Source: Coprobacillaceae bacterium
Lineage (GTDB): Bacteria > Bacillota_I > Bacilli_A > Erysipelotrichales > Coprobacillaceae
DNA length: 32,000 bases
Direction: 5' to 3'
NCBI GenBank assembly: GCA_963675515.1
Contig: OY776328.1
Coordinates: forward strand, 1,470,001 to 1,502,000
The translations under genes and the position numbers were made by a program. Positions within the stretch are counted from its first letter, which is position 1, and each line of letters starts with the position of its first letter. The notes under the pieces were generated by a model, which was given only the letters and a program-made list of their open reading frames with translations, made no database searches and had not been told where the DNA came from. Below are positions 12,418 to 30,184 of this stretch, in pieces.

Positions 12418-13923
12418 ATGTTTATCGCTTATGATATCAAAAACGGAATTGAATATGGCAAGGTTTGCACCTCGATCCGTGAGGGAAAGAAAGTCAAGAA
12501 AACGTATACTAATCTCGGACGAGTTCTTGATAAAGAGCGCGGAATCTTTCAGAACCGGTCACTTGGTGTGTTCACCTATTCCGTTGAAAACGGCTATGGC
12601 AAATCACCTGTGGATTTTGTACCCGATTCAAACGGAGACAGAGGAAAGATGAAACTTATCCTGGACTTCGGAGACAGCTTCTTCATCAATGAATATCTGA
12701 AGCAAACAGGCTTGGATAAAGTAGTAGATGAGATCGGATACGGAAATCCGGATACCCTAAAAGCGATGCTTTCCTACTATATATTGTGTAACATGGCTAA
12801 CTGCAACGCCATTGACTGGTTCGAAGGCAACTATGCGAGAATCCTGTATCCAAAGGCAAACCTTACCAGCCAGCGGATTAGTGATTTTCTCACCGCTATC
12901 GGGGATGAATACTCGGAGCGTGAATTCTTCAAGGCATATTTGGAATTCCTGTTCAGTAAAGACAACACAATCAAGGAAACCGGGATACTGATTGACAGCA
13001 CTGGACTTCCTAACGATATCCACTTTCCCTTGACGGCCATCAGTAACCATAACGGTCATATAAGCAATGAGGTAAGGCTGATCTATGTGACCCAGCAGGA
13101 TACCGGAATGCCGATATACTTCCGTTATTGTCCAGGCAACGTCATCGATACACCCACATTGGTCAGAACCATAGCTGAGTTGAAGGAAAGTGGCGTCAAC
13201 ACTAAATTTGCCATTCTTGATGCCGGATACTATTCGGATGGTAATCTCCTGCACCTATATGAGAACAAGATATCATTCGTCACAAGACTTAAGGAAAACC
13301 TGAAGCTATACAAGCACCTGGTAAACAACCATCTCGATGGCATCCAGGATAAAGAGAATTTCGTAAGCTATAACAGCCGTTATGCCTATATCAAACGGGT
13401 TGAGTGCGAACTTGTTGAAGGTTACACCGGATATGCCTACATCGGTCTTGACCTTGATCGGAAATCGAGCGAAAGCCATAAGTTGTTCCAGAAGGCAAAA
13501 GATCAAAAACTCAGTGATGAAGACGTTTACGAGAAGATGAAAAACAAAGGAATATTCATTTTGGTCTCATCGAGACGCATAGCGAAGGATAAAATCCTGC
13601 CGCTTTACTATACCCGGCAACAGGTTGAACAAATTTTCGACATCAGCAAGAACTATGCGGATCTATTGCCCTTGCGAGTGCAAAATGAGGACACCTTCAG
13701 AGGCCACCTGTTGTTAACGTTCATCGCAACTGTGTTCTGTAAGATGGTTCAAGACAAGCTGAAGGGTACCAAAATGAATCCTCAATCCTTGTTCCTGAAC
13801 CTGCGAAACCAAAAATGCAAAGTATATGATAATGCTGTAATCACTCAAGAAGCTTTCAAGAAGGCGAATGACTGTTACAAAGCATTCGGTATTGAATGCC
13901 CGGTCAGAATACCGAAAACCTGA
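12418..13923 (+). CDS. DDE transposase, IS4 superfamily (IS1634-like N-terminus)
   Basis: 501 aa. Y-(2)-R-(3)-E-(6)-K signature in LYYTRQQVEQIFDISK. Candidate catalytic Asp residues in LIDSTGLP and ILDAGYYS. SD GAAGGGAG upstream. Confidence 0.85.
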   Translation: MFIAYDIKNGIEYGKVCTSIREGKKVKKTYTNLGRVLDKERGIFQNRSLGVFTYSVENGYGKSPVDFVPDSNGDRGKMKLILDFGDSFFINEYLKQTGLDKVVDEIGYGNPDTLKAMLSYYILCNMANCNAIDWFEGNYARILYPKANLTSQRISDFLTAIGDEYSEREFFKAYLEFLFSKDNTIKETGILIDSTGLPNDIHFPLTAISNHNGHISNEVRLIYVTQQDTGMPIYFRYCPGNVIDTPTLVRTIAELKESGVNTKFAILDAGYYSDGNLLHLYENKISFVTRLKENLKLYKHLVNNHLDGIQDKENFVSYNSRYAYIKRVECELVEGYTGYAYIGLDLDRKSSESHKLFQKAKDQKLSDEDVYEKMKNKGIFILVSSRRIAKDKILPLYYTRQQVEQIFDISKNYADLLPLRVQNEDTFRGHLLLTFIATVFCKMVQDKLKGTKMNPQSLFLNLRNQKCKVYDNAVITQEAFKKANDCYKAFGIECPVRIPKT

Positions 13924-15569: not shown

Positions 15570-16250
15570 ATGTCAATAAATTTTCTTACCAATGGGGACA
15601 TTTTAATAGTTTACCAAAGTGATGGTGATGCGGACCGTTGCATTGCTGTAGACGAGTTCGGTCGGGTTGTCGATGGTGACAGCATTCTTTATGTATGCGG
15701 CAAGTATGCAAAAAGCCATGGTGAATTGGAGAACGACACTGTCGTGACGACAATCATGTCCAACCTGGGACTTTACAAGGCATTTGATGAACTGGATATC
15801 AAATATGAAAAAACCGCTGTAGGGGACAAATACGTCAATGAAAACATGGTAAACAACGGCCATGTCCTGGGCGGGGAACAATCGGGGCATATCATCTTTT
15901 CCAAGCATGCCACAACCGGTGATGGAATATTGACATCATTGAAGGTGATGGAAGCGATTATCGAATCGAAGAAGACATTGGCTCAGCTGACGGAAAACCT
16001 GGTTATCTATCCGCAGTTGATGAAAAACGTAAGGGTAAAAGACAAAAAGGCCGCGCAGGAACATCCAGCCGTGCAGGCGATCATCGCTGAAGTTGCCGAT
16101 GAATTGGGCAACAATGGTCGGGTCCTGGTCCGGGAATCGGGAACCGAACCGGTCATCAGGGTCATGGTCGAAGCGGCAACTGACAAGCTGTGTGAAAACC
16201 ATGTCAACAATATCGTACAAGTGATCAATCAATCGGGAGTGGCAATCTAG
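15570..16250 (+). pseudogene. glmM: Phosphoglucosamine mutase, C-terminal half only (5'-truncated)
   Basis: Recognisable from DGDADRCIAVDEFGRVVDGD (metal-binding loop, about nt 15618 onward) through GGEQSGHIIF and RESGTEPVIRVMVEA. The full protein is about 450 aa. Upstream sequence is AT-rich and unrelated, and the listed ATG is fortuitous. Confidence 0.8.
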
Positions 16251-16260
16251 CCACTCCTTT
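16236..16260 (+). terminator. Hairpin overlapping the glmM stop codon, short T tract
   Basis: ggagtggc-aatcta-gccactcc (perfect 8-bp stem, 16236-16257), followed only by TTT and then an A run. Confidence 0.4.
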
Positions 16261-16270
16261 AAAAAACTGT

Positions 16271-16299
16271 TTGAAAAATATCGCATTTTAGGTTAATAT
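16271..16299 (+). promoter_or_regulatory. Sigma-70-type promoter of the hxs operon
   Basis: TTGAAA (16271-16276), 17-nt spacer, TAATAT (16294-16299), about 70 nt upstream of the SD GAGGGGGA and the TTG start at 16371. Confidence 0.55.
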
Positions 16300-16487
16300 T
16301 GTAATTATTTGTACGTTTTAAATGATTTGGAATATTAAAATACAGTAATGGTTAATTGAGGGGGATTATTTTGGAGAAAGAATATAAATTCAACCGGGAA
16401 ATGTATTCCCGGGAGTCACTAATCAAGGCTGCGTACAATTTCATTGATGATTACTATATCGGGCTGGATATGGATGAAGCTTACTAT

Positions 16488-17854
16488 GATAGTGTAAAAT
16501 ATTTTGTGTAAATAGGATTTCAACTTTTAAGTAGAAAAAAGGGTGCAACCCTTGTAAAATTAGTTCGACGAAAACAATTTACGAGAGGATTACACCCATG
16601 AACTATTTTACAACAACTTTACTTAGAAGTCTAATATCAAATGATAATAATCTGCCAGCTTTTGAGCAAGTAGTCTCAGAACTTTTCCGGAGCGAATTGG
16701 AGAATGCCATCAACGATATTTTGAAGTCCGAACTTACCGTTTTTCTTGATTATGAGAAATATGACCGATCTGAGAATTCGAATTCAAGAAATGGCTATTA
16801 CAACCGCGATTACAACACTAAATATGGTGTGTTGAACCTGCGCATACCACGTGACCGTCAAGGGGACTTTGATTCACCGCTGGTCCCTAAATATCAGCGA
16901 AACGATCTAGCTACCACCAACACTGTCATCGATCTATTTAATTCAGGGATGACCAACAGCGACATTGTAAAAACTGTTGAATCAATCTACGGCAAGAAAT
17001 ACTCCAGACAGACAGTTTCCAATATTACTAAGGAAATAGTTGCCCATGTTGAAGCCTTTAAAAATCGCCCGTTAAACAAGCAATACGCAGTTGTTTATAC
17101 CGACGCTACAGTTATTCCTTTGCGGCGCGATACCGTGTCTAAAGAGGCGGTTCATATCGCTATAGGAGTGACTCTAGAGGGAACAAAGGAAATACTAGGA
17201 TATTCAATTGCGCCAACCGAATCCGCAACAACATGGCGGGAACTGTTTGAAGAGTTCAAAACACGCGGTTTGGAAGCGGTTGCGTTATTCTGTACTGACG
17301 GGCTAACCGGTGTTGAGAACGCCATTGAAGACACTTTTCCGATGGCCAAAATCCAACGTTGCCTGGTGCATGTTTCAAGAAACATTACAGCCAAAGCAAG
17401 AGTGAAAGACCGTAGTGAGATTGCACAGGATTTTAAGCGAGTTTACAATTGCGAAACTGAAAAAGCGGCGAGTGAAGAGCTTAAGGAGTTCATCACCAAA
17501 TGGGGGCAAAAATACCCAAAAGTGGCAAAATCACTTGAAGAGAATTCAAATCTATTCACTTTCTATTTGTTCCCTGAATCGGTACGCAAGAGCATATATA
17601 CAACAAACCTGATCGAAGGTTTCAATAAACAGCTCAAGCGGAAAATCAAGGCTAAAGAACAATTCCCAAATGAGGAAGCTGTGGAGAAATACATCGTTTC
17701 GCAATTTGAACAATATAACCAAAAATTCATGAACCATACCCATAAGGGATTCAAAGGAATATCTTACGAACGTTGGTTCCTGCTAGAAGAAGAATAACCA
17801 AGATGATCAGTAAGAACTAATTTTACAAATTTACACAAAAATATTGACACTACC
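16488..17854 (+). mobile_element. IS256-family insertion sequence (1367 bp) with 8-bp target duplication
   Basis: Left end GATAGTGTAAAATATTTTGTGTAAA versus the reverse complement of the right end GGTAGTGTCAATATTTTTGTGTAAA. CTTACTAT occurs at 16480-16487 and 17855-17862. Confidence 0.9.
16598..17797 (+). CDS. IS256-family (mutator-type) transposase
   Basis: 399 aa. NSRNGYYNRDYNTKYGVLNLRIPRDRQGDFDSPLVPKYQR, VVYTDATVIP, FCTDGLTGVENAI and IQRCLVHVSRN are hallmark Transposase_mut motifs. Confidence 0.95.
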   Translation: MNYFTTTLLRSLISNDNNLPAFEQVVSELFRSELENAINDILKSELTVFLDYEKYDRSENSNSRNGYYNRDYNTKYGVLNLRIPRDRQGDFDSPLVPKYQRNDLATTNTVIDLFNSGMTNSDIVKTVESIYGKKYSRQTVSNITKEIVAHVEAFKNRPLNKQYAVVYTDATVIPLRRDTVSKEAVHIAIGVTLEGTKEILGYSIAPTESATTWRELFEEFKTRGLEAVALFCTDGLTGVENAIEDTFPMAKIQRCLVHVSRNITAKARVKDRSEIAQDFKRVYNCETEKAASEELKEFITKWGQKYPKVAKSLEENSNLFTFYLFPESVRKSIYTTNLIEGFNKQLKRKIKAKEQFPNEEAVEKYIVSQFEQYNQKFMNHTHKGFKGISYERWFLLEEE

Positions 17855-18091
17855 CTTACTATCTTGTGAAGATTGTTCCTAAAGACATTGCCAACGCTGG
17901 ATTGGATGCCGAGACATTCAAAAATGAAATCCTGATCCAGGAAACCCGGGCAGTGGTGGCTAAGCGTACGGGCAATTTGCGGGAAATGATCTATTCTCGA
18001 TCATTGGCTTCGACAATAGTTTCAGGGACCACACCTGAAGCGGGTGTCCAATGCCAAATGAATGCGCAAGACATCCTGGTGGACTGGTTTG

Positions 18092-18316
18092 ATGAAAATG
18101 AATAACAGAATGGATCTGCATCGGGACTTGTTCAGTGACAAGTTGATCTCACAAGCAATCGAAGACTATGCCCTTTTGGTGGACATCACCGTCGAGCATC
18201 GGGGCAATGATGACTACGCTAGGCTGTTATTCGATAATCCCAAATATGAACTGGCTTTGACAATGGCCGAGTTTCGCAATTACCTGATTGGATTGGTGCG
18301 CCAGGATGAATATTGA
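18092..18316 (+). CDS. Second, shorter HxsD-like small protein
   Basis: MKMNNRMDLHRDLFSDKLISQAIEDYALLVDITVE...ALTMAEFRNYLIGLVRQ has the same layout as the first gene (SLIKAAYNFIDDYYIGLDM ... ETFKNEILIQETR). The start is uncertain (18092, 18098 or 18110) and overlaps the upstream stop. Confidence 0.5.
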   Translation: MKMNNRMDLHRDLFSDKLISQAIEDYALLVDITVEHRGNDDYARLLFDNPKYELALTMAEFRNYLIGLVRQDEY

Positions 18317-19325
18317 TATCATATCCCTGTTAATGACCACTGCGTTTTCTTTGACCTGCGCCTTGATGGACTTGAAAGACGGCATTGTCAGGAATGCTGT
18401 CTTCAAGTATCTTGGGATTACTTTGGCGATGGTCAACCTGATGTTGGTCTATCTGAGTGTTGGGCCCGATTGGAAACGTTATGGGCTGTTCCTGGCGGTT
18501 GGAGTCATTATCTCGCTTATATTGTTCTACACGCATATCTGGGCCGGGGCGGATTGCAAGTTCTATGCGATAGTTGTTTTGTTGTTGCCTTGGCCCGTGG
18601 TCGTAGGCCAGGTATATGGCTTAAGCAATATTGTCGTCATTGTGATCCTGGCATTCTTGTATGGATATATGTACATATTGGGCGAGTCAATCTGGCAGTA
18701 CGCCAATAACAGGAAAGACCTGTTGGTTTGGCAAACTGTCAAATCGGATTTTGGCCACTATTTTAAGACGTATTTCTTGATTGTCCTGGCAAATGAAGTT
18801 ATCAATTCGCTGACTTCACTGTTTTTCCAGGTGACGATAAGCAATATCCTGCTGGTTGTTATCGATTATGCTCTTGTTGTTTGGGCGAACAAGTGGCGCT
18901 TGCTTGAAAACAAAATGATCGTGGCGACAATCATTATTGGCAACATTGCAATGCAGCTTTCGGGACTGATAAGCATATTGACCTTAATCAATCTCATGAT
19001 CTGGGCTGTGGTGATCTTGGCTCTGGTACTCAAGAATTTTGCAAGAAGTTTCAACTATAGGCAAATCGACCTTGGCGCTTTGGAAAAAGGGATGATCCTT
19101 TCAACCATGTCTTCAATCCAACTGGCAAGAAAAAGGTACTCGCGCTTCAAGAAGATTTCCGATGAATCATTGAACTCCCGTCTTGATGAACAGGACATTT
19201 TAGTTTTGCACCAGCTGGCATCTTCTTTAAAAACGCCTCAGGAGGTCTGTATTGTCAAGAAAATACCGTTCATCCTTTTCATTTATCTTGGCATCGCTTC
19301 TATCCTGATCATGGGGGCACTTTAA
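18306..19325 (+). CDS. Peptidase A24 (prepilin/preflagellin peptidase)-like polytopic membrane protein with a large internal or C-terminal expansion
   Basis: Candidate catalytic Asp motifs ALMDLKDGIVRN and IWAGADCKFYAIV (GxGDxK-like). C-terminal KKIPFILFIYLG resembles the IPFGP motif. About 339 aa versus about 160-250 for minimal A24 enzymes. The ATG at 18306 overlaps the upstream stop. Confidence 0.6.
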   Translation: MNIDIISLLMTTAFSLTCALMDLKDGIVRNAVFKYLGITLAMVNLMLVYLSVGPDWKRYGLFLAVGVIISLILFYTHIWAGADCKFYAIVVLLLPWPVVVGQVYGLSNIVVIVILAFLYGYMYILGESIWQYANNRKDLLVWQTVKSDFGHYFKTYFLIVLANEVINSLTSLFFQVTISNILLVVIDYALVVWANKWRLLENKMIVATIIIGNIAMQLSGLISILTLINLMIWAVVILALVLKNFARSFNYRQIDLGALEKGMILSTMSSIQLARKRYSRFKKISDESLNSRLDEQDILVLHQLASSLKTPQEVCIVKKIPFILFIYLGIASILIMGAL

Positions 19326-19326
19326 G

Positions 19327-20427
19327 ATGCTAAAAGTAAGTAATTATTTATATGGTACCCGGATGGCTTCGGTGGCCAAAAGCGAAGCGGTATTGAAGCG
19401 AATGATCGATTTGAATTATGATGTGTGCTATGTGGAGCGATCAAGTCTATGTTTTTATCCTGATGGCCTGAGGGTTCCGCTTGTTGATGATGAATATGAT
19501 GCGTTCCATGATCTTCCCGACTACAGCATCCTGGAATTCCGGGAAGGCAGGGCATATCTAAGCCATGATGCGAGTTCGCTCGACAACGCGATCTTCATAA
19601 CCAATCGGTGCAATTCCAACTGCATCATGTGTCCCACAAGCAATCATGTGCGTCGGCAAAGCGAGATTGCCGACATTGCCAATTTGCTCAAGTTGTGCCA
19701 CCAGATTCCCAGTGATGCTGCCCATCTGACGATCACCGGGGGCGAGCCTTTCCTATTGAAAGATGACCTTTTTGTCCTGCTGCAATACCTCAAGATCCAT
19801 AAGGGCAATATTGAATATCTCCTGCTGAGTAATGGTCGGGCTTTGGGGGATTACAATTATTTCACGAGATTCAAGGCCACTGTTCCGGAACATCTGCTGA
19901 TTGGCATCCCGTTGCACGGTTATGATGCAGCGACCCATGATCGTATAACCCGCAGCTCGGGCAGCATCAACCAGACTTATCAGGGTCTGAAATACCTGGC
20001 TTCGACTTGCATCAAGGTGGAATTGCGGATAGTAGTCAGTCGATTGAACATCGATTATATCGATGCCATCGCCAATCTGGTAATCAGGGAATTGGCTCAT
20101 GTCCAGGTCGTAACCTTCATCGGTTTGGAAATGCTGGGGAATGCCCGTCTAAACTTCGACCAGGTCTGGGTTGATTACCGCAGCTCCTTTGAAGCAATCA
20201 CAGGAGCCATCGACAACTTGATCGCTTCAGGCATCAATGTCGTTATCTACAATTATCCCTTGTGTTGCGTCCCGGAAAAGTATTGGTCGATTTGCCATCG
20301 CAGCATTTCGCCCGAGAAGGTGCGCCACTTGGATGAATGTCTCACATGCACTAAAAAGGACTACTGCGGAGGGATGTTTATGGGAACCTACAGACTGATG
20401 GAAGGAAAGGTAAAGGCAATAAGATGA
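19327..20427 (+). CDS. hxsC: Radical SAM protein, HxsC-type maturase
   Basis: ITNRCNSNCIMCP (CxxxCxxC), ITGGEPF, and a C-terminal Cys cluster CCVPEKYWSIC...CLTCTKKDYCGG. There is a 95-aa N-terminal extension before the cluster. The start lies 1 nt after the upstream stop. The C-versus-B assignment follows gene order and size, from memory. Confidence 0.75.
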   Translation: MLKVSNYLYGTRMASVAKSEAVLKRMIDLNYDVCYVERSSLCFYPDGLRVPLVDDEYDAFHDLPDYSILEFREGRAYLSHDASSLDNAIFITNRCNSNCIMCPTSNHVRRQSEIADIANLLKLCHQIPSDAAHLTITGGEPFLLKDDLFVLLQYLKIHKGNIEYLLLSNGRALGDYNYFTRFKATVPEHLLIGIPLHGYDAATHDRITRSSGSINQTYQGLKYLASTCIKVELRIVVSRLNIDYIDAIANLVIRELAHVQVVTFIGLEMLGNARLNFDQVWVDYRSSFEAITGAIDNLIASGINVVIYNYPLCCVPEKYWSICHRSISPEKVRHLDECLTCTKKDYCGGMFMGTYRLMEGKVKAIR

Positions 20428-21809
20428 TCGCACCATTCAATTTCAAGCAATTTGGCAACAAGATAATCATGACCAATGACCTGGGCCGTTATATGTTTGT
20501 CGAAAAGAAAGAATTCCAGGACTTGCTAAATGACAGGATGGATACCGGATCACAGTTGTACCGGGAACTTGAAGACAACTTCTTCGTATTCAACAGCTCC
20601 ATGGAGTATTTTGTGGAACGGATGAAACCCGAGCTGCGGACTGCCAAGAGCTATCTGTTTACAGCCACCAGCCTCCATATCTTTGTAGTCACCAACTACT
20701 GCAACTCCAATTGCGTCTATTGCCAGGCCAACAGCAATTGTTCCAATTCCAAGAAGGTTATGGACAGGGACATCGCCCGCAAGGCCGTTGACTTCGCCCT
20801 GCAGTCGCCTCAAAAACAGCTTACCTTTGAATTCCAGGGTGGGGAACCCTTAAGCAATTTCCCCATCATCAAGGAGATAGTGGAATATGCTTCCTCAAGG
20901 AAAAAAGACAAAGTCATCGCTTATACGATAGTATCCAACTTGTCGCTGCTCAATCAGGAGATGGTTGATTTTTTCAAGGAACATTGCATCTCGATTTCCA
21001 CCTCCCTGGACGGTCAGGCGGAGCTTCACAATCAAAACCGTCCCCTGGCTAACGGTGATGATTCTTTCGCCATCCAGAAAATGGCAATGGCCAGGCTCAA
21101 AGCCAACAAGATCGGTTATGGGGCCATCCAGACAACGACCCGGACAAGTCTTAAGTATGCCCGGGAGATAGTCGACCAGTATCTGGAGTTTGGTCTTTCC
21201 AATCTGTTTGTCCGGCCACTCACCCCGCTTGGCTGTGCTGCTTCAAGCTGGGATGATATCGGTTATACCGTTAAAGAATTCATTGATTTTTACAAGGACA
21301 CCATGCTGTATATTTTAAAATTGAATCAGCAGGGGACAATCATCAAGGAAGGACATGCCAGCATATTCCTGCAAAAGATAATCAACGGCTACGGTGTCAA
21401 CTACATGGAACTTCGTTCCCCTTGTGGGGCGGGTATCGGGCAGTTGGCATATTATTATGACGGCAACATCTTCACCTGCGATGAGGGCAGGATGCTCCAT
21501 GAAATGCATGACAGTTCGTTCAAGTTGGGAAATGTGGCGGATATGGATTATGACAGTCTGATGAATTCGAAATTATGCAAGACAGTCTGCAAGCACAGCA
21601 TCATCGAAAGCATTCCCAAATGCGCTGATTGTGTCTATATGCCATATTGCGGCACTTGCCCGGTAGTCAATTATGCCCTGGAGGGCGATATTATCCCCAA
21701 GTCGGTTGCCAATTACCGTTGCGAACTGTATGGCGGGATGCTCGAGACGATATTCGAACTGATCCAAAACGAAGACTACCTGAACATATTCAAGGAATGG
21801 GTGAAATGA
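20424..21809 (+). CDS. hxsB: Radical SAM/SPASM-domain protein, HxsB-type maturase
   Basis: VTNYCNSNCVYCQA, FQGGEPL, and a SPASM-like C-terminus (SPCGAG...DGNIFTC ... CADCVYMPYCGTCPV). ATGA overlap with hxsC at 20424-20427. Confidence 0.8.
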   Translation: MIAPFNFKQFGNKIIMTNDLGRYMFVEKKEFQDLLNDRMDTGSQLYRELEDNFFVFNSSMEYFVERMKPELRTAKSYLFTATSLHIFVVTNYCNSNCVYCQANSNCSNSKKVMDRDIARKAVDFALQSPQKQLTFEFQGGEPLSNFPIIKEIVEYASSRKKDKVIAYTIVSNLSLLNQEMVDFFKEHCISISTSLDGQAELHNQNRPLANGDDSFAIQKMAMARLKANKIGYGAIQTTTRTSLKYAREIVDQYLEFGLSNLFVRPLTPLGCAASSWDDIGYTVKEFIDFYKDTMLYILKLNQQGTIIKEGHASIFLQKIINGYGVNYMELRSPCGAGIGQLAYYYDGNIFTCDEGRMLHEMHDSSFKLGNVADMDYDSLMNSKLCKTVCKHSIIESIPKCADCVYMPYCGTCPVVNYALEGDIIPKSVANYRCELYGGMLETIFELIQNEDYLNIFKEWVK

Positions 21810-22744
21810 TGAACAAGATAAAAAAGATATTATCAAAAAAACTGTTAATAATTACTGTAATATTGTTTTCATTTGCCGGCATCGCAGTTGCGTATGGCGA
21901 AGACGAGTATGGCATCATCGAGAATTTCGACCTCTACCGGGAAAACTACGAGACTGGCCAACTCGAGACGGTGAATGGTATCTATTATGGCTCTATTGCC
22001 GAATTGAAGAGCGTTTCACATAGTGGCGAGTTTACCTTTGATGTGGGCGACAGCTATTCCGGCGAGTGGGACAATAAAACAATCGAAGGCTGGGGGACAT
22101 ACTCGTATGAAACCTTGGGTAGCTACACTGGTTATTTTGAAAACAATCTTCGAAGCGGCGAGGGTACCTTCAAATGGAGTGACGGGGGTGAGTATGTCGG
22201 CTACTGGGAGCTCGATAGATTATCCGGTACGGGGACTTACACTGCTCCCGAAAACTATGTCTTGAAGGGAACATTCAGTGGAAATAAATTTATCGCGGGA
22301 ACTGTCAAGACAACAATCGATGACACAGCCTATACTTATTATCTGGAAGACGGTACTTTTATCAATGCGATCGACATTGACTACTCCAACGGAAGCAATT
22401 ATCATGGCGACTATAAAGACGGTAAAATAAACGGTACGGGCATCATGAATTACAGCAACGGTGACCAATATAGTGGCCAATTCGGTTCCGGTCTGCGTGC
22501 AGTGATCGGAACGTACACCTGGAAAAACGGAGCCACGTACTCAGGAGATTGGAGCAACGACAAGATGAACGGCAAAGGCGTCTATACCTATCCCACAAAT
22601 GCCGCCGGAAAGTCGGTGTCTGGCAACTTCGTCAACAACAATATTACCGGAAGCAGCACTTACATCGACGATGATGGAAAAAAATTCGAAGTAATCTGGA
22701 GTAATGGCGTTTGCAAGCAGGTGAAAGGAGCAACCAATGATTGA
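21806..22744 (+). CDS. Secreted or anchored MORN-repeat protein
   Basis: Sec-type N-terminus MMNKIKKILSKKLLIITVILFSFAGIAVA/YG. At least 6 MORN-like units (YSGEWDNKTIEGWGTYSY, YTGYFENNLRSGEGTFKW, YVGYWELDRLSGTGTYT, YHGDYKDGKINGTGIMNY, YSGQFGSGLRAVIGTYTW, YSGDWSNDKMNGKGVYTY). ATGA overlap with hxsB at 21806-21809. The ORF-track start at 21629 is an upstream read-through. Confidence 0.85.
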   Translation: MMNKIKKILSKKLLIITVILFSFAGIAVAYGEDEYGIIENFDLYRENYETGQLETVNGIYYGSIAELKSVSHSGEFTFDVGDSYSGEWDNKTIEGWGTYSYETLGSYTGYFENNLRSGEGTFKWSDGGEYVGYWELDRLSGTGTYTAPENYVLKGTFSGNKFIAGTVKTTIDDTAYTYYLEDGTFINAIDIDYSNGSNYHGDYKDGKINGTGIMNYSNGDQYSGQFGSGLRAVIGTYTWKNGATYSGDWSNDKMNGKGVYTYPTNAAGKSVSGNFVNNNITGSSTYIDDDGKKFEVIWSNGVCKQVKGATND

Positions 22745-23273
22745 TAATTTTCCAACCATAAAAAAATCAATTGAGGATTTGATCAACGATGAAGAGGGTA
22801 ATATCCCAAGAGGCAAACTGATTACCATCGGTTCGACCCTGATGCTCATGGGGATGATCATGGGAATTGATGTCTATGCGACCCACGGTTCGCATAAGTC
22901 GCACTCGTCCCATTCATCTACCTCATATGTAAGATCGCATTCATCTACCTCATATGTAAGATCGCATTCATCGCACGGATCCCACACGTCACATGCTTCG
23001 CATGCAAGCAGCCAGACATCGGATGCTAGTACCCATGCGTCTCATTCCAATACTCACTCATCAGCACCGGCTCATGTAAATTCTAATACTACCCCAACCC
23101 ATATAAGCAATGCCGGTGGAAGTGTACCAGGGACCAGTGAGATCCCTGCACTTCAAACTCCGGTTCCTGATAATTTCGGTACGAATATACCAAACATTTC
23201 AACAGCGGTATCGTTCGAATTGGAAGTGGGGAAAACAATTGTTCCGGATTTCAAATTGGATAATGGCAAGTAA
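22737..23273 (+). CDS. hxsA: His-Xaa-Ser repeat protein (HxsA-type putative substrate)
   Basis: THGSHKSHSSHSSTSYVRSHSSTSYVRSHSSHGSHTSHASHAS...THASHSNTHSS contains about 12 H-x-S triplets. There is no Cys in the whole 178 aa. A hydrophilic 27-aa N-terminus precedes one hydrophobic segment. There is an 8-nt overlap with the MORN gene. Confidence 0.85.
   Translation: MIDNFPTIKKSIEDLINDEEGNIPRGKLITIGSTLMLMGMIMGIDVYATHGSHKSHSSHSSTSYVRSHSSTSYVRSHSSHGSHTSHASHASSQTSDASTHASHSNTHSSAPAHVNSNTTPTHISNAGGSVPGTSEIPALQTPVPDNFGTNIPNISTAVSFELEVGKTIVPDFKLDNGK
22911..22972 (+). repeat. Perfect 27-bp tandem duplication (2.3 copies) inside hxsA
   Basis: cattcatctacctcatatgtaagatcg occurs at 22911-22937 and 22938-22964, then cattcatc. 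It encodes HSSTSYVRS twice. Confidence 0.95.
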
Positions 23274-23970: not shown

Positions 23971-24264
23971 CTTTTCCCATAATATCTTGATTGCTTGAGA
24001 GATCGCCTCGCTGGTAATCTGATCAGTTTCCCTTAACAGGTTGGAGCGATTCCAAAACACATCGTTGAAATACGACAATTCCAATCCTATTTTCATTAAC
24101 GGAACGCAAATCCAGTTTGTCAGTCTTGATTTCCCAATCAGTACGTTTACATGATTCCCATTGTATTTCAATGAAAACTCACACTGGCTATCGGTGATAC
24201 TGATTAACTCAAGATTATTCTGCCAGACAATTCCATCATATTCGCATTTAAATGAGATCATCAT
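23956..24264 (-). CDS. Hypothetical protein (102 aa), last gene of the transposon operon
   Basis: 4-nt overlap with the ATPase gene stop. No recognisable motif. Confidence 0.45.
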   Translation of the reverse strand: MMISFKCEYDGIVWQNNLELISITDSQCEFSLKYNGNHVNVLIGKSRLTNWICVPLMKIGLELSYFNDVFWNRSNLLRETDQITSEAISQAIKILWEKKIIA

Positions 24265-25064
24265 ATATTGACCTCGTTAATTGTCTGCAGCGCAATATCG
24301 CTATCGATAACTTCGACACCTTTTATTGCACCGATAAACATCGCCCGGTCACATATCCTGTCGATTTCTCGGCACACACCGTTGGCGCCATTGATTATTG
24401 CTTCCAATGCGTTGTTGTCGAATACTTCCTGGATTGTCTTGGCCAGGAGCAACTTGTCCTTGATGTATGCATGTCCTTCCAGCTTATCTAATTGACCGAT
24501 ACTGTAGTTGACAATGATTCTTTGCGTTAATGAGTCATGAGCCCCAAACCGTAAATGTCGAATTATCGAAGGTAGACCAACCATCAAAATTACCGCATGG
24601 TTCTTGGAATCCATATCGAAGTTAAATATCATCTTTAAATCATTGAGTATCGCCGTACTCATATGGTTACACTCATCAAAGATGAATACCGGAGTGATCC
24701 GCTTTTCATAAACCAATTGGTAAATGGCGGTCTGGATATCCTTGAACAAGTCGTTTTTCCGATATCGAGGAATCAAATCAAGGGAATCCGCTAGTTGCAT
24801 ATAGAACTCCTTGACCGATAAAGTCGACATGGACAGGTAAATTATCTTGTAAGTGACCTTGGGCAGGTTGCTTACGTAGTTCCTGATCATGGTTGTCTTG
24901 CCACGTCCTGGTTCCCCAAGAATCATCCCGAATCCCTTTATTTCAAACAAACTGTCGAGCCTTATTTTCAGCTCTTTGTATTCCTTCGTTTCGATAAAAT
25001 TATTCTTATTGTTTTTAATGAATGGGTTGAACTCTAACCCATATCTGGTCCAGTATTTTTCCAT
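24261..25064 (-). CDS. AAA+ ATPase, TniB/ExeA/Tn552-p271-like transposition helper
   Basis: YWTRYGLEFNPF (ExeA-like N-terminus), Walker A GEPGRGKTT, Walker B PVFIFDECNHM. 267 aa, abutting the transposase gene with no gap. Confidence 0.85.
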   Translation of the reverse strand: MEKYWTRYGLEFNPFIKNNKNNFIETKEYKELKIRLDSLFEIKGFGMILGEPGRGKTTMIRNYVSNLPKVTYKIIYLSMSTLSVKEFYMQLADSLDLIPRYRKNDLFKDIQTAIYQLVYEKRITPVFIFDECNHMSTAILNDLKMIFNFDMDSKNHAVILMVGLPSIIRHLRFGAHDSLTQRIIVNYSIGQLDKLEGHAYIKDKLLLAKTIQEVFDNNALEAIINGANGVCREIDRICDRAMFIGAIKGVEVIDSDIALQTINEVNI

Positions 25065-26312
25065 CTAATCTTCTCCTGCGCATAACTTTGGTTTCACTCT
25101 AACTGCTGTTGCATTCGCATGTTTATCCAATAATTTGATTGGTTCTAATTCTCCTGTGTGTTTATTAACTACATAAACCTGGGACAAATCTGGAGCATAT
25201 CTAAAAACATGGCGCTCATTTGAATATATGTACTCAATTTCGTATTCTTTGTTTTCAATCTTGACCACCGAATCCACACTGACCTTTCTTTCCACTTCAA
25301 ACAGGAAGGTGTTATCGATGGACTCGTCGTTCAATCGCTTGATCAGGTTGCTTTCATGATAGAACCTTTCGCTAGGGGTCAAGCCATTCAGTGAAGAATG
25401 GACCCTTGTATTGTATTTGTGAATAAATTTGTTTAGATCGGTATTCAATTTCTCTAAATCATTGGTATAGTCAATCACATTTAATTGAGCAAAAAACTGT
25501 TTTTTTACAGTTGAGAAAAAGCGCTCAATCTTCGCCTTTCCAGTTGGTTCGAACGCTTTACAATAGCTAATTGTAGAATTTATTCTTGCGGCAGTCATCT
25601 GAATCTGGGAACTCTTATAGTTCGAACCATTATCAAACCGGAACATTTCTGGGACACCATACTTGGTAACTGCGCTTTTCATGGCATCCATTAGATTCAC
25701 CGTATTATCATTAAGATATATCCCCATATGGACTATCATTCTTGAAGCATCGTCAATCAAGGCAATCATATATGTCCGGCGCTTTTTACCGTTGATGTAA
25801 ATATATGGCCCAACTGAACTGTCGCCAGCCCACATCGAATTGATATGGCGGGCTTCATAACGCCTCATGTCCTTCTTGTTTGAAATACGCAGCTCAGCTT
25901 TGATTTCATTAACACAACGGTTGACTGTCGATAGGGAAACATCAGTCTTCTTTATTAATCCATCTTCAATCAGTTTTTCATAGATTACAGTTGCCGGCAA
26001 CCTAGGATAGGTTGTCTTATAGTGCTTTATGACCTCAATGACGTCGTCATCGAGTCTTCGCGATCTCCCGGCATCACTTCTCCCTTGTGGAATCAGGCCA
26101 TCAAATCCTTTAGTCTCATAAGCCTTGATCCATCTTCGGATGGTTGTATCGGACACGGTGAAATCACTACTGTCAAAATCCTTATAAATCTTTTTGGTTG
26201 CCTGCTCGATAGCCTGGGATTTTGTCCAAGATTGATCATAATTTCCGGTTATTATGTCATGAATTATCCTATGGCGCAATAAAGTAACAAATTCCTGTTC
26301 TTTTCTATTCAT
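25065..26312 (-). CDS. DDE transposase (rve/Mu-transposase-like; TnsB/TniA/Tn552-p480 class)
   Basis: Triad context WAGDSS, FDNGSNY and GKAKIERFF, with an N-terminal HTH region. The ORF opens at 26354, but GGGAGG plus 6 nt favours the ATG at 26312 (MNRKEQEF). Confidence 0.85.
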   Translation of the reverse strand: MNRKEQEFVTLLRHRIIHDIITGNYDQSWTKSQAIEQATKKIYKDFDSSDFTVSDTTIRRWIKAYETKGFDGLIPQGRSDAGRSRRLDDDVIEVIKHYKTTYPRLPATVIYEKLIEDGLIKKTDVSLSTVNRCVNEIKAELRISNKKDMRRYEARHINSMWAGDSSVGPYIYINGKKRRTYMIALIDDASRMIVHMGIYLNDNTVNLMDAMKSAVTKYGVPEMFRFDNGSNYKSSQIQMTAARINSTISYCKAFEPTGKAKIERFFSTVKKQFFAQLNVIDYTNDLEKLNTDLNKFIHKYNTRVHSSLNGLTPSERFYHESNLIKRLNDESIDNTFLFEVERKVSVDSVVKIENKEYEIEYIYSNERHVFRYAPDLSQVYVVNKHTGELEPIKLLDKHANATAVRVKPKLCAGED

Positions 26313-26360
26313 ATTGTTCCTCCCATCAGTACTATATAGGAGTTGATTGAACAAGTTAAC

Positions 26361-27128: not shown

Positions 27129-28799
27129 ATGTTTGTCAGAGCTGTTAAGAACAATAAAGGTAAAGATAATACCTATTTTTGTGCACTTGTTGAGTCTTAT
27201 CGTGAAAATGGTGTATCTAAACACCGCGTTCTTATTAATTTCGGTCTTGTAGACGGAGAAAGTGTTCCTTTCCTCAAAGCGGCTTTCGCTAAAAAGAAAC
27301 CAAGGTTGGTATACGATGATGAATAATGTAGTTAAGACTAATAAGATGACAGATTTCTTCAATTCTTTCGCGGATGTCTTGTCTTCTGACATCACTCGTA
27401 ATTTATCTAGGAACTTTAGTTCTAATTTTACTCGCAATCGGACTATGACTTTCAGGGATGTAATTCTCTACTTTGTTTTTAGAAATTCTAAGGACACTAA
27501 CACGGACTTGACCAAGTATTTCTGCTCCACTGACCGCTTGGAAAAAAGGATCACCAAGCAAGCTCTTAACGTCGATATCAAAAAACTCAATCCATCAGTA
27601 TTCAGATATTTATTCAAAGAGTTTGCCAAGGAGTTCTATCAAACAAGCTGCCTAAGACATATAAAGGGTATACGCTTTTAGCTGAAGATGGGACCTTTCT
27701 AGAAATTCCCTATAGCATCCACAATATTTATAACTTCGGCTTTTGGAAAAACCAGTACGTCAAAGATATTTTCGATGTTAAGAAAGTTCTGTCCAAATCA
27801 GCTGGACTATATGACGTCACCAACGGCATCTTTTTGGATTTCATGATGAGACCTGCCCCTTACTCAGAAATTCCACTTGCCTTCCAACACCTTTATAGTT
27901 GTGGGGATCTGTTGGCTGGCAAGAAAGTGATTTATCTTGCTGATCGCTACTATGGCTCAGTCGAGCTTATCAGTCATCTTGAGCACTTAGGATTTGATTA
28001 TTGCATCCGTGCCAAATCCAACTTCTTTAAAAAGCAAGTCAGTGAAATGACTTCAAATGATGAGTGGATCGAGGTAGATGTTGACAGGCTATGGCGGAAA
28101 AGATTCCGGTTCTCTGATGAAGCCCGTAAAATCAGAGAAGATAACCCCAAAGTGAAGATAAGAGTCGTAAAATTTACTTATGCATACAGTAATAAATTCG
28201 GGGAGTCCATTGAATCAGATATAACATACTTTACCAGTTTGTCAAAAGAAGAGTTCAGCCACGAGGATATCATCGAGCTCTATTCAAAGCGTTGGAATAT
28301 TGAGGTGGCATATAAAACGCTAAAAACCGATATGGAACTGGAACGACACGTTAGCGAATCCGACACCGTATCCCAATGCTGCATCTATGGCAAAATCGTG
28401 CTTTACAATATCTTGGGAGTGATCAGGAAAGAAATCGACAGGTATCTTAGCAGGCACCCGGGCAAGCACCGCCGCCGGCCTAATCGTGAAGAAACCTCCG
28501 ATAAAAATGATGAAGATAATATCCAGTACCAGGTCAACATCAAACAACTACATAATCTGCTGATGGAGAACAACCTGCTGTATCCGTTTTACAGTCATAA
28601 GAAAACACTGATGCGAAAAAGGATTAAGCAAATAGTTGCCGTAGCCCAAACAATAAAAGTGCCCGTCCGCAAGAACAGGCACAGTCAACGTTGGGGCAGA
28701 GTAGTTCCTAGTGGATTCTACTACCGATTCTCGCTTGATGGGCGAAACTATCCAAAAATTCAAACCATCAAAGGCGTCATGAGAACAGTTGCCCCGTAG
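27129..28799 (+). pseudogene. IS1634/IS4-family transposase, frameshifted
   Basis: N-terminus MFVRAVKNNKGKDNTYFCALVESYRENGVSKHRVLINFG is IS1634-like. The pieces lie in frames 3/1/3. The frame break at about 27655-27681 falls inside YKGYTLLAEDGTFLEIP (first catalytic D). Other motifs are YLADRYYGS (second D) and YSKRWNIEVAYKTLK (Y-2-R-3-E-6-K). Confidence 0.75.
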
Positions 28800-29075
28800 T
28801 CAAGAATACACTATCATTATAACATGAATATCGCAATTTTAAAAAAACGCTAAAATTCTATGGGGGATTATGCGCTTTTTTTCATGTGAAGATTTAAACT
28901 AAACTTGAATTAAGCGTCAGAGATTTATATTTAAGCTGCATATAGATATAAAAAGAGCCAACTAGGAAAAAGGTCCTAAAGTTGACTCCATTGGGGGAGT
29001 GGATAGGTTACAATAAATTAGACAAGATTATAAGGACATGATAAAATCTTGTTAAATTTGTGGAGGATATTCAAA

Positions 29076-29369
29076 ATGACAAAACGCAGACCTAAACGTA
29101 CTTACACCGATGAATTCAGAATCAAAATGGTTCAACTTTACAACAATGGGAAACCCAGAGCGGAAATAATCCGTGAATACGATTTGACAGCTTCAGCGTT
29201 CAATAAATGGGTTAAACGCTTCAATGACACGGGTTCGTTTACTGAAGCCGACAATCGATCAGATCATGACAAGGCGCTTATCAAGCTCCAAAAAGAAAAC
29301 GAACGACTGAAGATGGAAAATGATATTTTAAAGCAAGCGGCGCTGATAATGGGACGAAAAGACAAGTAA
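29076..29369 (+). CDS. IS3-family transposase OrfA (HTH)
   Basis: MTKRRPKRTYTDEFRIKMVQLYNNGKPRAEIIREYDL..., with a leucine-zipper-like C-terminus LQKENERLKMENDILKQA. GGAGG lies 9 nt upstream of the ATG at 29076. Confidence 0.85.
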   Translation: MTKRRPKRTYTDEFRIKMVQLYNNGKPRAEIIREYDLTASAFNKWVKRFNDTGSFTEADNRSDHDKALIKLQKENERLKMENDILKQAALIMGRKDK

Positions 29370-29404
29370 TCTTTGCAAATCAACACAAATACTCTATCAG
29401 CGCT

Positions 29405-30184
29405 ATGTGCAAAGTCTTGAAAATCTCTCGGGCAACTCTCTACTACAAACCCAAAGGGCGTAAAGTGGATTCGAAGCTTGAAGATGAAGTAATAAAATCA
29501 TTCAAAAACAGCAAGAAGAATTATGGAACACGCAAGATAAAAGATGACCTGGATGATTTGAACATGGTTGCCAGCAGAAGAAAAATTGCTCAAATCATGG
29601 ACAAATACGGCTTGATCAGTAAATACACCATCAAGCAAAGACCAAAGCATTATGGCAAAGTAAATAATGACGATATTGAAAATCTGATCAATAGAAAATT
29701 CCAAGCAGAGCGGCCAATGCAATATTTAACCAGCGACTTGACCTACATCAAGGTGGCTGGAAAATGGAACTATATTTGTCTGATAATAGATTTATACAAT
29801 CGTGAAATCGTTGGTAAATCTAGTGGTCAAAACAAAGACGCCAACTTGGTTATTAAGGCATTAAACGATATAAAAAGTGATTTAAGTGATGTCGAAGTAT
29901 TTCATTCAGACCGAGGCTCAGAGTTCAAAAACGAGATGATTGATAGGATATTGGCATTGAATGGAATCAAGAGATCGTTGAGTGCAAAAGGTAAACCGAT
30001 TGATAACGCAGTATCAGAATCAATGTACAAAATACTCAAAACAGAATTCGCATTCAATCGACAATTCCGCAGTATCGACGAATTGTCATTGGAACTGTAT
30101 GATTATGTCAACTGGTTCAACAACAAAAGGAAGCATGGGAGCCTTAATTACAAAACACCCGTACAATACAGGTTGTCCTTATAA
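29405..30184 (+). CDS. IS3-family transposase OrfB (rve DDE domain), expressed by -1 frameshift from OrfA
   Basis: OrfB lies in the -1 frame relative to OrfA and is open from 29324, giving a 46-nt overlap window. Motifs: YLTSDLTYI, FHSDRGSEF, DNAVSESMYKILKTE and NNKRKHGSLNYKTP. Confidence 0.85.
   Translation: MCKVLKISRATLYYKPKGRKVDSKLEDEVIKSFKNSKKNYGTRKIKDDLDDLNMVASRRKIAQIMDKYGLISKYTIKQRPKHYGKVNNDDIENLINRKFQAERPMQYLTSDLTYIKVAGKWNYICLIIDLYNREIVGKSSGQNKDANLVIKALNDIKSDLSDVEVFHSDRGSEFKNEMIDRILALNGIKRSLSAKGKPIDNAVSESMYKILKTEFAFNRQFRSIDELSLELYDYVNWFNNKRKHGSLNYKTPVQYRLSL

Follow-up and report, generated by a model that had tools for sequence, protein, structure and literature searches.

HxsA3 of a conserved Bacillota His-Xaa-Ser cassette: a motif duplication in the repeat array and an IS256 element within hxsD

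The gene hxsA3, at positions 22737..23273 on the forward strand of a 32,000-nucleotide stretch of a Coprobacillaceae genome (positions 1,470,001 to 1,502,000 of contig OY776328.1, assembly GCA_963675515.1; this whole stretch is called the window below), encodes a His-Xaa-Ser (HxS) repeat protein. Arguing largely by analogy with the system characterised in Escherichia coli, we consider HxsA3 to be probably (with a probability of about 0.7) the ribosomally synthesised substrate, and presumably the effector, of a Bacillota-type (‘type 3’) His-Xaa-Ser cassette, for which HXS-like modification, export and an antiphage role are proposed. The family to which the gene belongs is already named: the protein matches NF038309 (HxsA3), a model defined bioinformatically, at 96.3 bits against a cut-off of 65 (E 6.9e-28), with residues 4–80 aligned to profile positions 1–79 of 81, and genes for the radical SAM maturases HxsB and HxsC lie directly upstream, so that the candidate HxsA substrate proposed by the initial annotation, which was made from the sequence alone, is borne out. 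It is not a new kind of gene, and since current annotation pipelines would name hxsA3 automatically, nothing is new at the family level.

Haft and Basu defined the His-Xaa-Ser system by bioinformatic means and presented it as a peptide-modification system, as far as their work is represented where it is cited in PMC9062424. Li et al. (Nat Commun 2026, PMC13128918) showed that the four-gene HXS system of E. coli is a broad antiphage defence which blocks entry of phage DNA. HxsA, the effector, is periplasmic and combines a signal peptide with five HxS repeats and a peptidoglycan-binding domain; its non-canonical N-terminal cleavage requires HxsB, HxsC and HxsD alike (PMC13128918). A modification of +8 Da was located on the SHRSS motif of the last repeat, and electrostatic engagement of the incoming DNA by HxsA was proposed; the authors could name no protease for the trimming of HxsA, nor explain the +8 Da change chemically (PMC13128918).

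The hxsA3 gene and its His-Xaa-Ser array

The open reading frame (ORF) encodes 178 amino acids and a stop, begins with ATG, has an AGGAG motif 8 nt upstream, and its start overlaps the stop of the preceding gene, which encodes a MORN-repeat protein, by 8 nt. The ratio of non-synonymous to synonymous substitution (dN/dS) against the closest relative, a metagenome contig designated L001, is 0.11, which argues for a real gene under purifying selection. The same comparison gave 0.14 for the MORN gene and 0.02 for the 3′ end of hxsB; diversifying selection on the extracellular parts of the cassette was considered and rejected as the overall signal, given the values of 0.11–0.14 for hxsA3 and the MORN gene.

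The array itself, delimited by composition and by alignment of homologs, spans residues 49–124 (22881..23108) and holds 13 HxS triplets, at residues 50, 53, 56, 59, 68, 77, 80, 83, 86, 89, 100, 107 and 122, arranged as a dense core at residues 50–91 followed by sparser triplets up to residue 124. HxsA3 contains 15 His, 33 Ser and no Cys, in agreement with the initial annotation, which had described an HxS array in a protein wholly lacking Cys. The calculated net charge of the array is +2.7 at pH 7 and +13.3 at pH 5.5, and that of the mature protein is −0.3, or about neutral, at pH 7 and +10.6 at pH 5.5. Behind the array lies an acidic, Pro-rich C-terminal tail (residues 125–178; 23109..23270) with a calculated isoelectric point (pI) of 4.3 and the partly conserved consensus AGGS.PGT.EIP....P..N.F, in which P142 and P170 are at least 90% conserved. 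Figures of this last kind come from an alignment of 33 homologs; motif counts at the N-terminus refer to 236 distinct N-termini, and statistics on the array, on Cys and on array motifs to 120 homologs. A Pfam search of HxsA3 returned no domains, and thus no recognisable wall-binding domain.

A protein search retrieved 560 HxsA3 homologs, mostly from gut and rumen Clostridia and other Bacillota, among them proteins of a Eubacterium sp., Anaeromicropila herbilytica and Oscillospiraceae that NCBI already names HxsA3. The N-terminal 51 residues alone were sufficient to retrieve 166 cluster representatives (50% clustering) from 1.84 billion proteins, all but two of which matched at their own N-terminus, and 79 of the 85 newly retrieved representatives (full-length, 120–500 amino acids) contain at least five HxS triplets. 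Cys is absent from 114 of the 120 homologs, which are 150–240 amino acids long and share the conserved tail. HxsA3-like proteins at two of the related loci, L017 (1494–1880) and L035 (8001–8630), carry His-Xaa-Thr arrays (HRTHYTHRTH... and HRTHSTHRTHS...) behind the same N-terminal domain.

A lineage-specific duplication within the array

Within the dense core, a perfect tandem duplication at 22911..22972 comprises two copies of the 27-bp unit CATTCATCTACCTCATATGTAAGATCG, 22911–22937 being identical to 22938–22964, and 8 nt of a third copy. Tandem Repeats Finder reported a period of 27, 2.3 copies, 100% match and a score of 124, with perfect periodicity reaching 22972; the mismatch-free 27-bp duplication that had been noted earlier is thus real in the sequence and extends even further than was first described. 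The unit encodes HSS-TSY-VRS, which is exactly three triplets, so the duplication (HSSTSYVRS twice, at residues 59–67 and 68–76) preserves the three-residue register of the array. In 5000 codon shuffles and 5000 shuffles of 9-nt units of the array, no sequence equalled the 35 successive matches observed at period 27 (maximum 17 for the codon shuffles and 26 for the 9-nt-unit shuffles), from which it follows that the duplication is not a chance feature.

What is doubled is the conserved S-T-S-Y-x-R motif of the HxsA3 family. Among the 120 homologs, S-[TS]-S-Y-x-R is present once in 69, absent from 50 and present twice only in the window protein, whose version reads SYVRSH where the commonest family form is SYHRSH (STSYHRSH). 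In L001, which shares 92% nucleotide identity, the unit occurs only once and departs at 5 of 27 nt from the sequence common to both window copies, indicating that the duplication post-dates the split of the two lineages; by these comparisons the duplication is lineage-specific, and the earlier view that it is recent finds support in the same observation. It would have arisen by replication slippage or unequal recombination. The suggestion that array length may vary also holds across the family, in which arrays contain 7–20 HxS triplets and many repeats of period 9, 18 or 27 occur; family-wide, hxsA3 genes show many imperfect repeats with periods of 9, 18, 27 and 36 and also a few short perfect ones, and the alignment shows the arrays of near relatives to differ by in-frame blocks. 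The highest-scoring perfect repeat among the hxsA3 genes examined is that of the window. Judged from these sequences, slippage or unequal recombination is an ongoing process in the hxsA3 family.

The duplication has been found in no homolog, which is the one point that would favour an assembly or sequencing artefact over a real allele. Such an artefact is very unlikely, to the point that we give it almost no weight: any current read is longer than the repeated stretch of 62 nt, so that collapse or expansion during assembly cannot make it; the duplication preserves both the reading frame and the register of the triplets; the source contig measures 2.88 Mb; and short perfect duplications exist in relatives also, such as the 18-bp unit present in 2.4 copies in hxsA3 of L011.

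Partner genes of the cassette

The cassette reads hxsD, hxsD-like, A24-like peptidase, hxsC, hxsB, MORN protein and hxsA3, all on one strand, with consecutive genes overlapping by 4–14 nt or lying 1 nt apart. HxsC (19327..20427, forward strand, as are all the cassette genes) scores 286.3 bits against a cut-off of 267.9 for TIGR03977 and has CNSNCIMC at residue 95 and a C-terminal CLTCTKKDYC, while HxsB (20424..21809), a radical SAM/SPASM maturase, scores 526.7 bits against 370 for TIGR03978 and has CNSNCVYC at residue 93 and CADCVYMPYC at residue 400. The CxxxCxxC and C-terminal Cys motifs are therefore intact in both proteins. Pfam matched Radical_SAM in HxsB, with SPASM falling below its gathering score (20.4 against 21.5 bits).

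Upstream of hxsC, the hxsD-like gene (18092..18316) encodes 74 amino acids from an ATG at 18092 and matches NF038315 (HxsD_rel) at 47.2 bits against a cut-off of 41; a gene of 70–74 amino acids occupies the same position in the related loci L045–L050. It is followed by a gene for a polytopic membrane protein (18306..19325) that resembles A24 enzymes, i.e. prepilin/preflagellin-type aspartyl peptidases, and has an additional soluble segment towards its C-terminus. For PF01478 the score of the window protein is 23.6 bits, below the gathering score of 26.5, and 25 of 29 A24-like cassette homologs match this model, with a best E of 2.2e-8. D28, N36, D89, K91 and P101 are invariant across the 29 homologs (numbered from a TTG at 18288; 6 is to be subtracted for the ATG at 18306), and D89 lies in a GxGD-type signature, for which the family consensus is wAGGDCKL and the window sequence A-G-A-D89-C-K. 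The sole match in the PDB was the preflagellin peptidase FlaK (3S0X), a weak one (E 0.076) that aligned over both Asp motifs. The soluble segment before the last helix is conserved as GMILS...SRV.GLP..S.EDL.SRLT.EE..SI.RW.

Between hxsB and hxsA3, the gene at 21806..22744 encodes a predicted secreted or membrane-anchored MORN-repeat protein of 312 amino acids (Pfam MORN, 81.2 bits), with an N-terminal signal-like segment MMNKIKKILSKKLLIITVILFSFAGIAVA/YG, the putative cut falling between the two parts. No NCBIfam model was found for either the A24-like or the MORN protein.

Conservation of the cassette in relatives

A scan taking one genome per species yielded 39 Bacillota loci, which were compared by tblastn with the seven proteins of the window. 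Matches, all on the same strand, were obtained for HxsB in 37 of them, for HxsC in 35, for the A24-like protein in 33, for the MORN protein in 29, for HxsD in 21 and for the HxsD-like protein in 18; the last two counts are probably underestimates, because these proteins are short and divergent. Of the 38 loci that gave two or more matches, 36 have the gene order of the window. The MORN gene stands between hxsB and hxsA3 in 29 of 39 loci, and in 25 of those 29 it is directly upstream of hxsA3; a gap of 0.4 kb separates the two in L009, L013, L025 and L026. Separate gene calls on metagenome contigs carry the Pfam labels HxsD, Peptidase_A24 (weak), Radical_SAM (two proteins) and MORN. Taken together, the sequence comparisons indicate that the seven-gene module is conserved in Bacillota. 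In the lineage of L049 and L050 the same seven genes are permuted to MORN, hxsA3, hxsD, hxsD-like, A24-like, hxsC and hxsB, as would be expected of a functional module. In the literature that we searched, neither the A24-like nor the MORN gene, both of them conserved accessories of the Bacillota cassette, is described.

Across window positions 21560–23273, divergence from L001 is uneven: the 3′ end of hxsB shows 99% protein identity and a synonymous divergence (dS) of 0.27, the MORN gene 78% and 0.87, and hxsA3 92% and 0.44. The threefold difference in dS between hxsB and the MORN gene suggests recombination within the cassette, or mosaic ancestry of its extracellular part.

In one Eubacterium relative (L046–L048, about 16170–20520) the cassette lies 5.6 kb from a Gabija-like pair (AAA_15/OLD-TOPRIM and UvrD helicase); the same locus contains another AAA_15/AAA_21 protein as well as Mob_Pre, ISL3, integrase and TnpV genes. 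This single example is compatible with a location in a defence island.

Disruption of hxsD by an IS256-family element

The window contains no intact hxsD, a disruption that was not remarked upon in the initial annotation. The 5′ part of the gene (codons 1–39 from a TTG start; 16371..16487, forward strand) was located by tblastn with full-length HxsD of L003, L004 and L006, which aligned to 16371/16380–16487, and is colinear with L045. It is separated from the 3′ part (17863..18105), to which it joins in frame, by an IS256-family element of 1367 bp (16488..17854, forward strand) recognised by its terminal inverted repeats and by its transposase (ORF 16598–17797; NF033543, 387 bits against a cut-off of 150). 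On either side of the element lies one copy of a perfect 8-bp target site duplication, CTTACTAT (16480–16487 and 17855–17862). The 3′ fragment alone (ORF 17866–18105) scores 25.9 bits for TIGR03976 and matches the C-terminal part of HxsD only, whereas 16371–16487 and 17863–18105 rejoined in silico encode 119 amino acids that score 63.3 bits against a cut-off of 50, over profile positions 1–87 of 90; the gene was a true member of the HxsD family before the insertion. N-terminal truncation of hxsD by deletion, which the ORF at 17866–18105 might suggest, was rejected, as the missing 5′ part is intact just upstream of the element.

L045 represents the empty site, with the 3′ end of glmM followed by an intact hxsD of 126 amino acids, hxsD-like, A24-like, hxsC and hxsB. 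The clean target duplication and the intact downstream frames point to a recent insertion. In E. coli, HxsD, including its N-terminal LYW motif, is essential for cleavage of HxsA and for defence (PMC13128918); with hxsD split, the window cassette is, on this analogy, probably inactive, switched off or transcriptionally uncoupled from its promoter in this strain.

Comparison with characterised Hxs and thioether systems

The window cassette shares with the HXS systems of E. coli and Klebsiella the HxsB and HxsC radical SAM pair, HxsD, and an HxS protein that lacks Cys and has a hydrophobic export signal at its N-terminus, and its HxsB is 27% identical to that of Klebsiella. HxsA of the Klebsiella plasmid example, which served as a control, scores 163.3 bits for TIGR03979 (HxsA type 1, cut-off 121.65 bits), lacks Cys and has a basic mature part with a pI of 9.6. 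The window protein, on the other hand, is unmatched by TIGR03979 at E <= 0.01 and has no peptidoglycan-binding domain; it has 13 triplets rather than 5, few Arg, a near-neutral instead of a basic mature part, and a conserved acidic segment of 27 residues before its hydrophobic segment. The cassette, too, departs from the proteobacterial pattern in adding the HxsD-like protein, the A24-like peptidase and the MORN protein, in having the order C-B and not B-C, and in belonging to a Gram-positive-type Bacillota host without a classical periplasm. By these comparisons it is a variant of the E. coli type that experiments have defined, and falls outside that type itself. Within the NF038309 family, by contrast, the window protein has the expected N-terminal domain, HxS array and HxsB/HxsC neighbourhood, and stands apart in the doubling and wording of its S-T-S-Y-x-R motif described above.

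HxsB also has the radical SAM and SPASM architecture of enzymes that form thioethers, as in sactipeptides, ranthipeptides/SCIFF and QhpD systems, and gave sub-threshold matches to PapB, CcpM and SCIFF maturase models. Assignment of HxsB to any of these three was rejected, all matches being far below their cut-offs and the substrate being Cys-free. Thioether formation is excluded because HxsA3 has no Cys, and the earlier argument that His or Ser, and not Cys, should be the target agrees with the mapping of the E. coli modification to Ser/His of SHRSS (PMC13128918).

The N-terminus of HxsA3 and its candidate processing sites

The N-terminus consists of a conserved acidic segment (residues 1–27; 22737..22817; FP.IKKSI.DLI.DEEGNIPR.K in the alignment), which may serve as a leader or recognition sequence, and a hydrophobic segment of 20 residues (22818..22880), defined by hydropathy and conservation, that ends in the AxA-type site V46-Y47-A48/T49. 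F5, P6, K10, D18, E19, E20, G21, I23 and K27 are invariant or at least 90% conserved; over the larger set of N-termini, G21, in DEEG, is conserved in 97% and K27 in 92%. The spacing from K27 to the first His is fixed at 22 residues in 92%, the −1 position of the AxA-type site is Ala in 94% and the −3 position is A, V, I, T or S in 95%, with exactly one residue between the site and the start of the array. HxsA3 thus has the features expected of a signal peptidase I substrate, namely R25/K27, a hydrophobic core and V46-Y47-A48|T49, although an acidic n-region of 27 residues is atypical. The AxA site and the fixed spacing equal G21 in strength of conservation, which speaks for the importance of a cut at A48. 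The initial annotation had proposed two processing sites, and they fared differently: VYA|T conforms to a conserved AxA rule and is, on this pattern of conservation, the best candidate site for release of the array, whereas RG|K found no such support, position 26 being Gly in only 46 (19%) of the relatives and Ser in 79, Asn in 70 and Lys in 25. Nor would the mature protein start exactly at the first HxS triplet, as had been thought, since a cut after A48 leaves T49 one residue ahead of it.

A cut on the cytoplasmic face, for example after the near-invariant G21, is a live alternative or a possible additional step. It is central to the idea that HxsA3 is pilin-like, with a class III signal: the A24-like peptidase would cut at R25-G26|K27 or after G21 (DEEG|N), and the hydrophobic segment would be kept as an N-terminal anchor, so that the array would be displayed on the membrane and not released. 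The dedicated A24-like membrane protein, with its D...GxGD-type motifs, recalls the A24 peptidases PilD, FlaK and PibD, and the gene with both catalytic Asp motifs is kept in 33 of 39 cassettes; HxsA3 has charged residues followed by a hydrophobic helix, as class III signal peptides do, its R-G|K and subsequent hydrophobic stretch resemble archaeal class III sites, G21 is highly conserved, and the N-terminal cleavage of E. coli HxsA is not ordinary signal-peptide removal (PMC13128918). On the other side, HxsA3 has no conserved Gly directly before the hydrophobic segment, Ser and Asn being commoner than Gly at position 26, and no Glu at +5; G21 is preceded by acidic residues (Glu-Glu) and not basic ones, and lies 6 residues ahead of the hydrophobic segment; and the leader is long and acidic, with a canonical signal peptidase I site, conserved together with its spacing as strongly as G21, after the helix. 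The A24-like protein, for its part, scores below the Pfam threshold in the window and has an unusual soluble stretch of some 70 residues inserted ahead of its last helix. On balance we regard pilin-like display as rather unlikely, while giving it more weight than any other alternative to the substrate and effector reading.

A proposed role for HxsA3

As a substrate and effector of the HXS kind, HxsA3 would be made in the cytoplasm, where HxsC and HxsB, aided by HxsD and the HxsD-like protein, would recognise its N-terminal segment and covalently modify His or Ser residues of the Cys-free array, a candidate site being S-T-S-Y-[HVI]-R-[SNDTG]-H. The protein would then be inserted or exported with its N-terminus inside and its C-terminus outside, and its N-terminus may be lost through a cut at A48|T49 by signal peptidase I, or else the A24-like peptidase of the cassette may remove it on the cytoplasmic side. 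The His-rich array, which is close to neutral at pH 7 and becomes strongly cationic at a pH below about 6, would end outside the membrane, where the co-encoded secreted MORN protein may tether it, and there it would interfere with an envelope step of phage infection, for example entry of DNA.

Several points weigh against this proposal. According to Li et al. (PMC13128918), 99.7% of HXS systems are in Pseudomonadota, with the gene order D-B-C-A. Experimental work on Hxs covers the E. coli type; HxsA3-type cassettes are known from sequence alone. HxsA of the E. coli type has a peptidoglycan-binding domain, 5 Arg-rich repeats and a pI of 9.6; mature HxsA3, by contrast, is near neutrality at pH 7 and shows no recognisable wall-binding domain, and HxsA3 has no TIGR03979 match. 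What is said here of the sites of modification and cleavage, and of what the A24-like and MORN proteins do, is inferred, and an AlphaFold2 model of the A24-like protein, built with 6 usable homologs, was too poor to use (pLDDT 52.5). A PADLOC scan (PADLOC-DB 2.0.0, which predates the HXS paper) gave generic viperin-like radical SAM matches for HxsB and HxsC and none for HxsA3; this 2023 database has no HXS model, hence there is no independent annotation as defence. Finally, with hxsD split, HxsA3 may not be matured at all in this strain.

The composition of HxsA3 also invites a reading unrelated to phage defence, which takes up the metal binding suggested in the initial annotation: HxsA3 would be a His-rich surface protein that binds metal, or else a precursor from which a secreted, metallophore-like ribosomally synthesised and post-translationally modified peptide is made. 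Its 15 His, at every third residue, would suit such a role, one homolog entry (P0091) is named ‘zinc transporter 7’ through compositional similarity to His-rich metal loops, and the original filing of Hxs as a peptide-modification system, at least as cited in PMC9062424, fits a peptide product. The name of that entry, though, is an artefact of composition and not evidence, the cassette conserves no metal transporter, regulator or uptake gene at the related loci, the homologs, at 150–240 amino acids with a conserved tail, are not short peptides, and the sole functional data for any Hxs system are antiphage (PMC13128918). We therefore think a metal-binding role improbable, distinctly more so than pilin-like display.

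If the antiphage proposal is taken further, type-3 Bacillota Hxs might be a distinct, Gram-positive form of HXS envelope defence, in which an A24-family peptidase removes the acidic leader, the secreted MORN protein replaces the peptidoglycan-binding domain as a tether, the pH-switchable poly-His array is the active surface and S-T-S-Y-[HVI]-R-x-H is the site of radical SAM modification. We put this forward tentatively, as a possible elaboration that is itself more doubtful than not. For the MORN protein, the suggestion that it may take the functional place of the peptidoglycan-binding domain found in proteobacterial HxsA could also be considered separately.

Genomic surroundings

The window (GC content 37.5%) is dense in insertion sequences and adjoins polysaccharide-biosynthesis genes. 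Upstream of the cassette are an IS1634-type transposase (12418–13923) and the C-terminal half only of glmM (15570–16250; TIGR01455 profile positions 237–441 of 442, 267 bits against a cut-off of 447); adjacency of glmM and hxsD is common to the window and L045. Downstream, the reverse strand carries at 24261–26354 a transposase whose best match, below cut-off, is IS481, together with an AAA ATPase gene, and the whole group, extending to 26915, includes an ORF of 184 amino acids. An IS4-type fragment (27834–28799) and IS3 orfA/orfB (29049–30184) follow.

Implications for the Hxs family

The points of interest in this locus are modest, namely the fresh, in-register duplication of the most conserved motif of the family, the A24-like and MORN accessory genes and the disruption of hxsD by IS256. 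As hxsD is split, functional work in this strain is not advisable without prior removal of the insertion sequence. Should the tentative Gram-positive scheme be true, the A24-family peptidase would be a candidate for the N-terminal processing activity, and the duplication would double the radical SAM modification site in this strain. More broadly, the Bacillota cassettes add to Hxs an A24-like peptidase, a second HxsD paralog, a MORN protein and a longer Cys-free array with an outstandingly conserved motif that is not HxS, and these additions offer handles on processing, on the modification site and on how a ‘periplasmic’ gatekeeper would work in a Gram-positive envelope.

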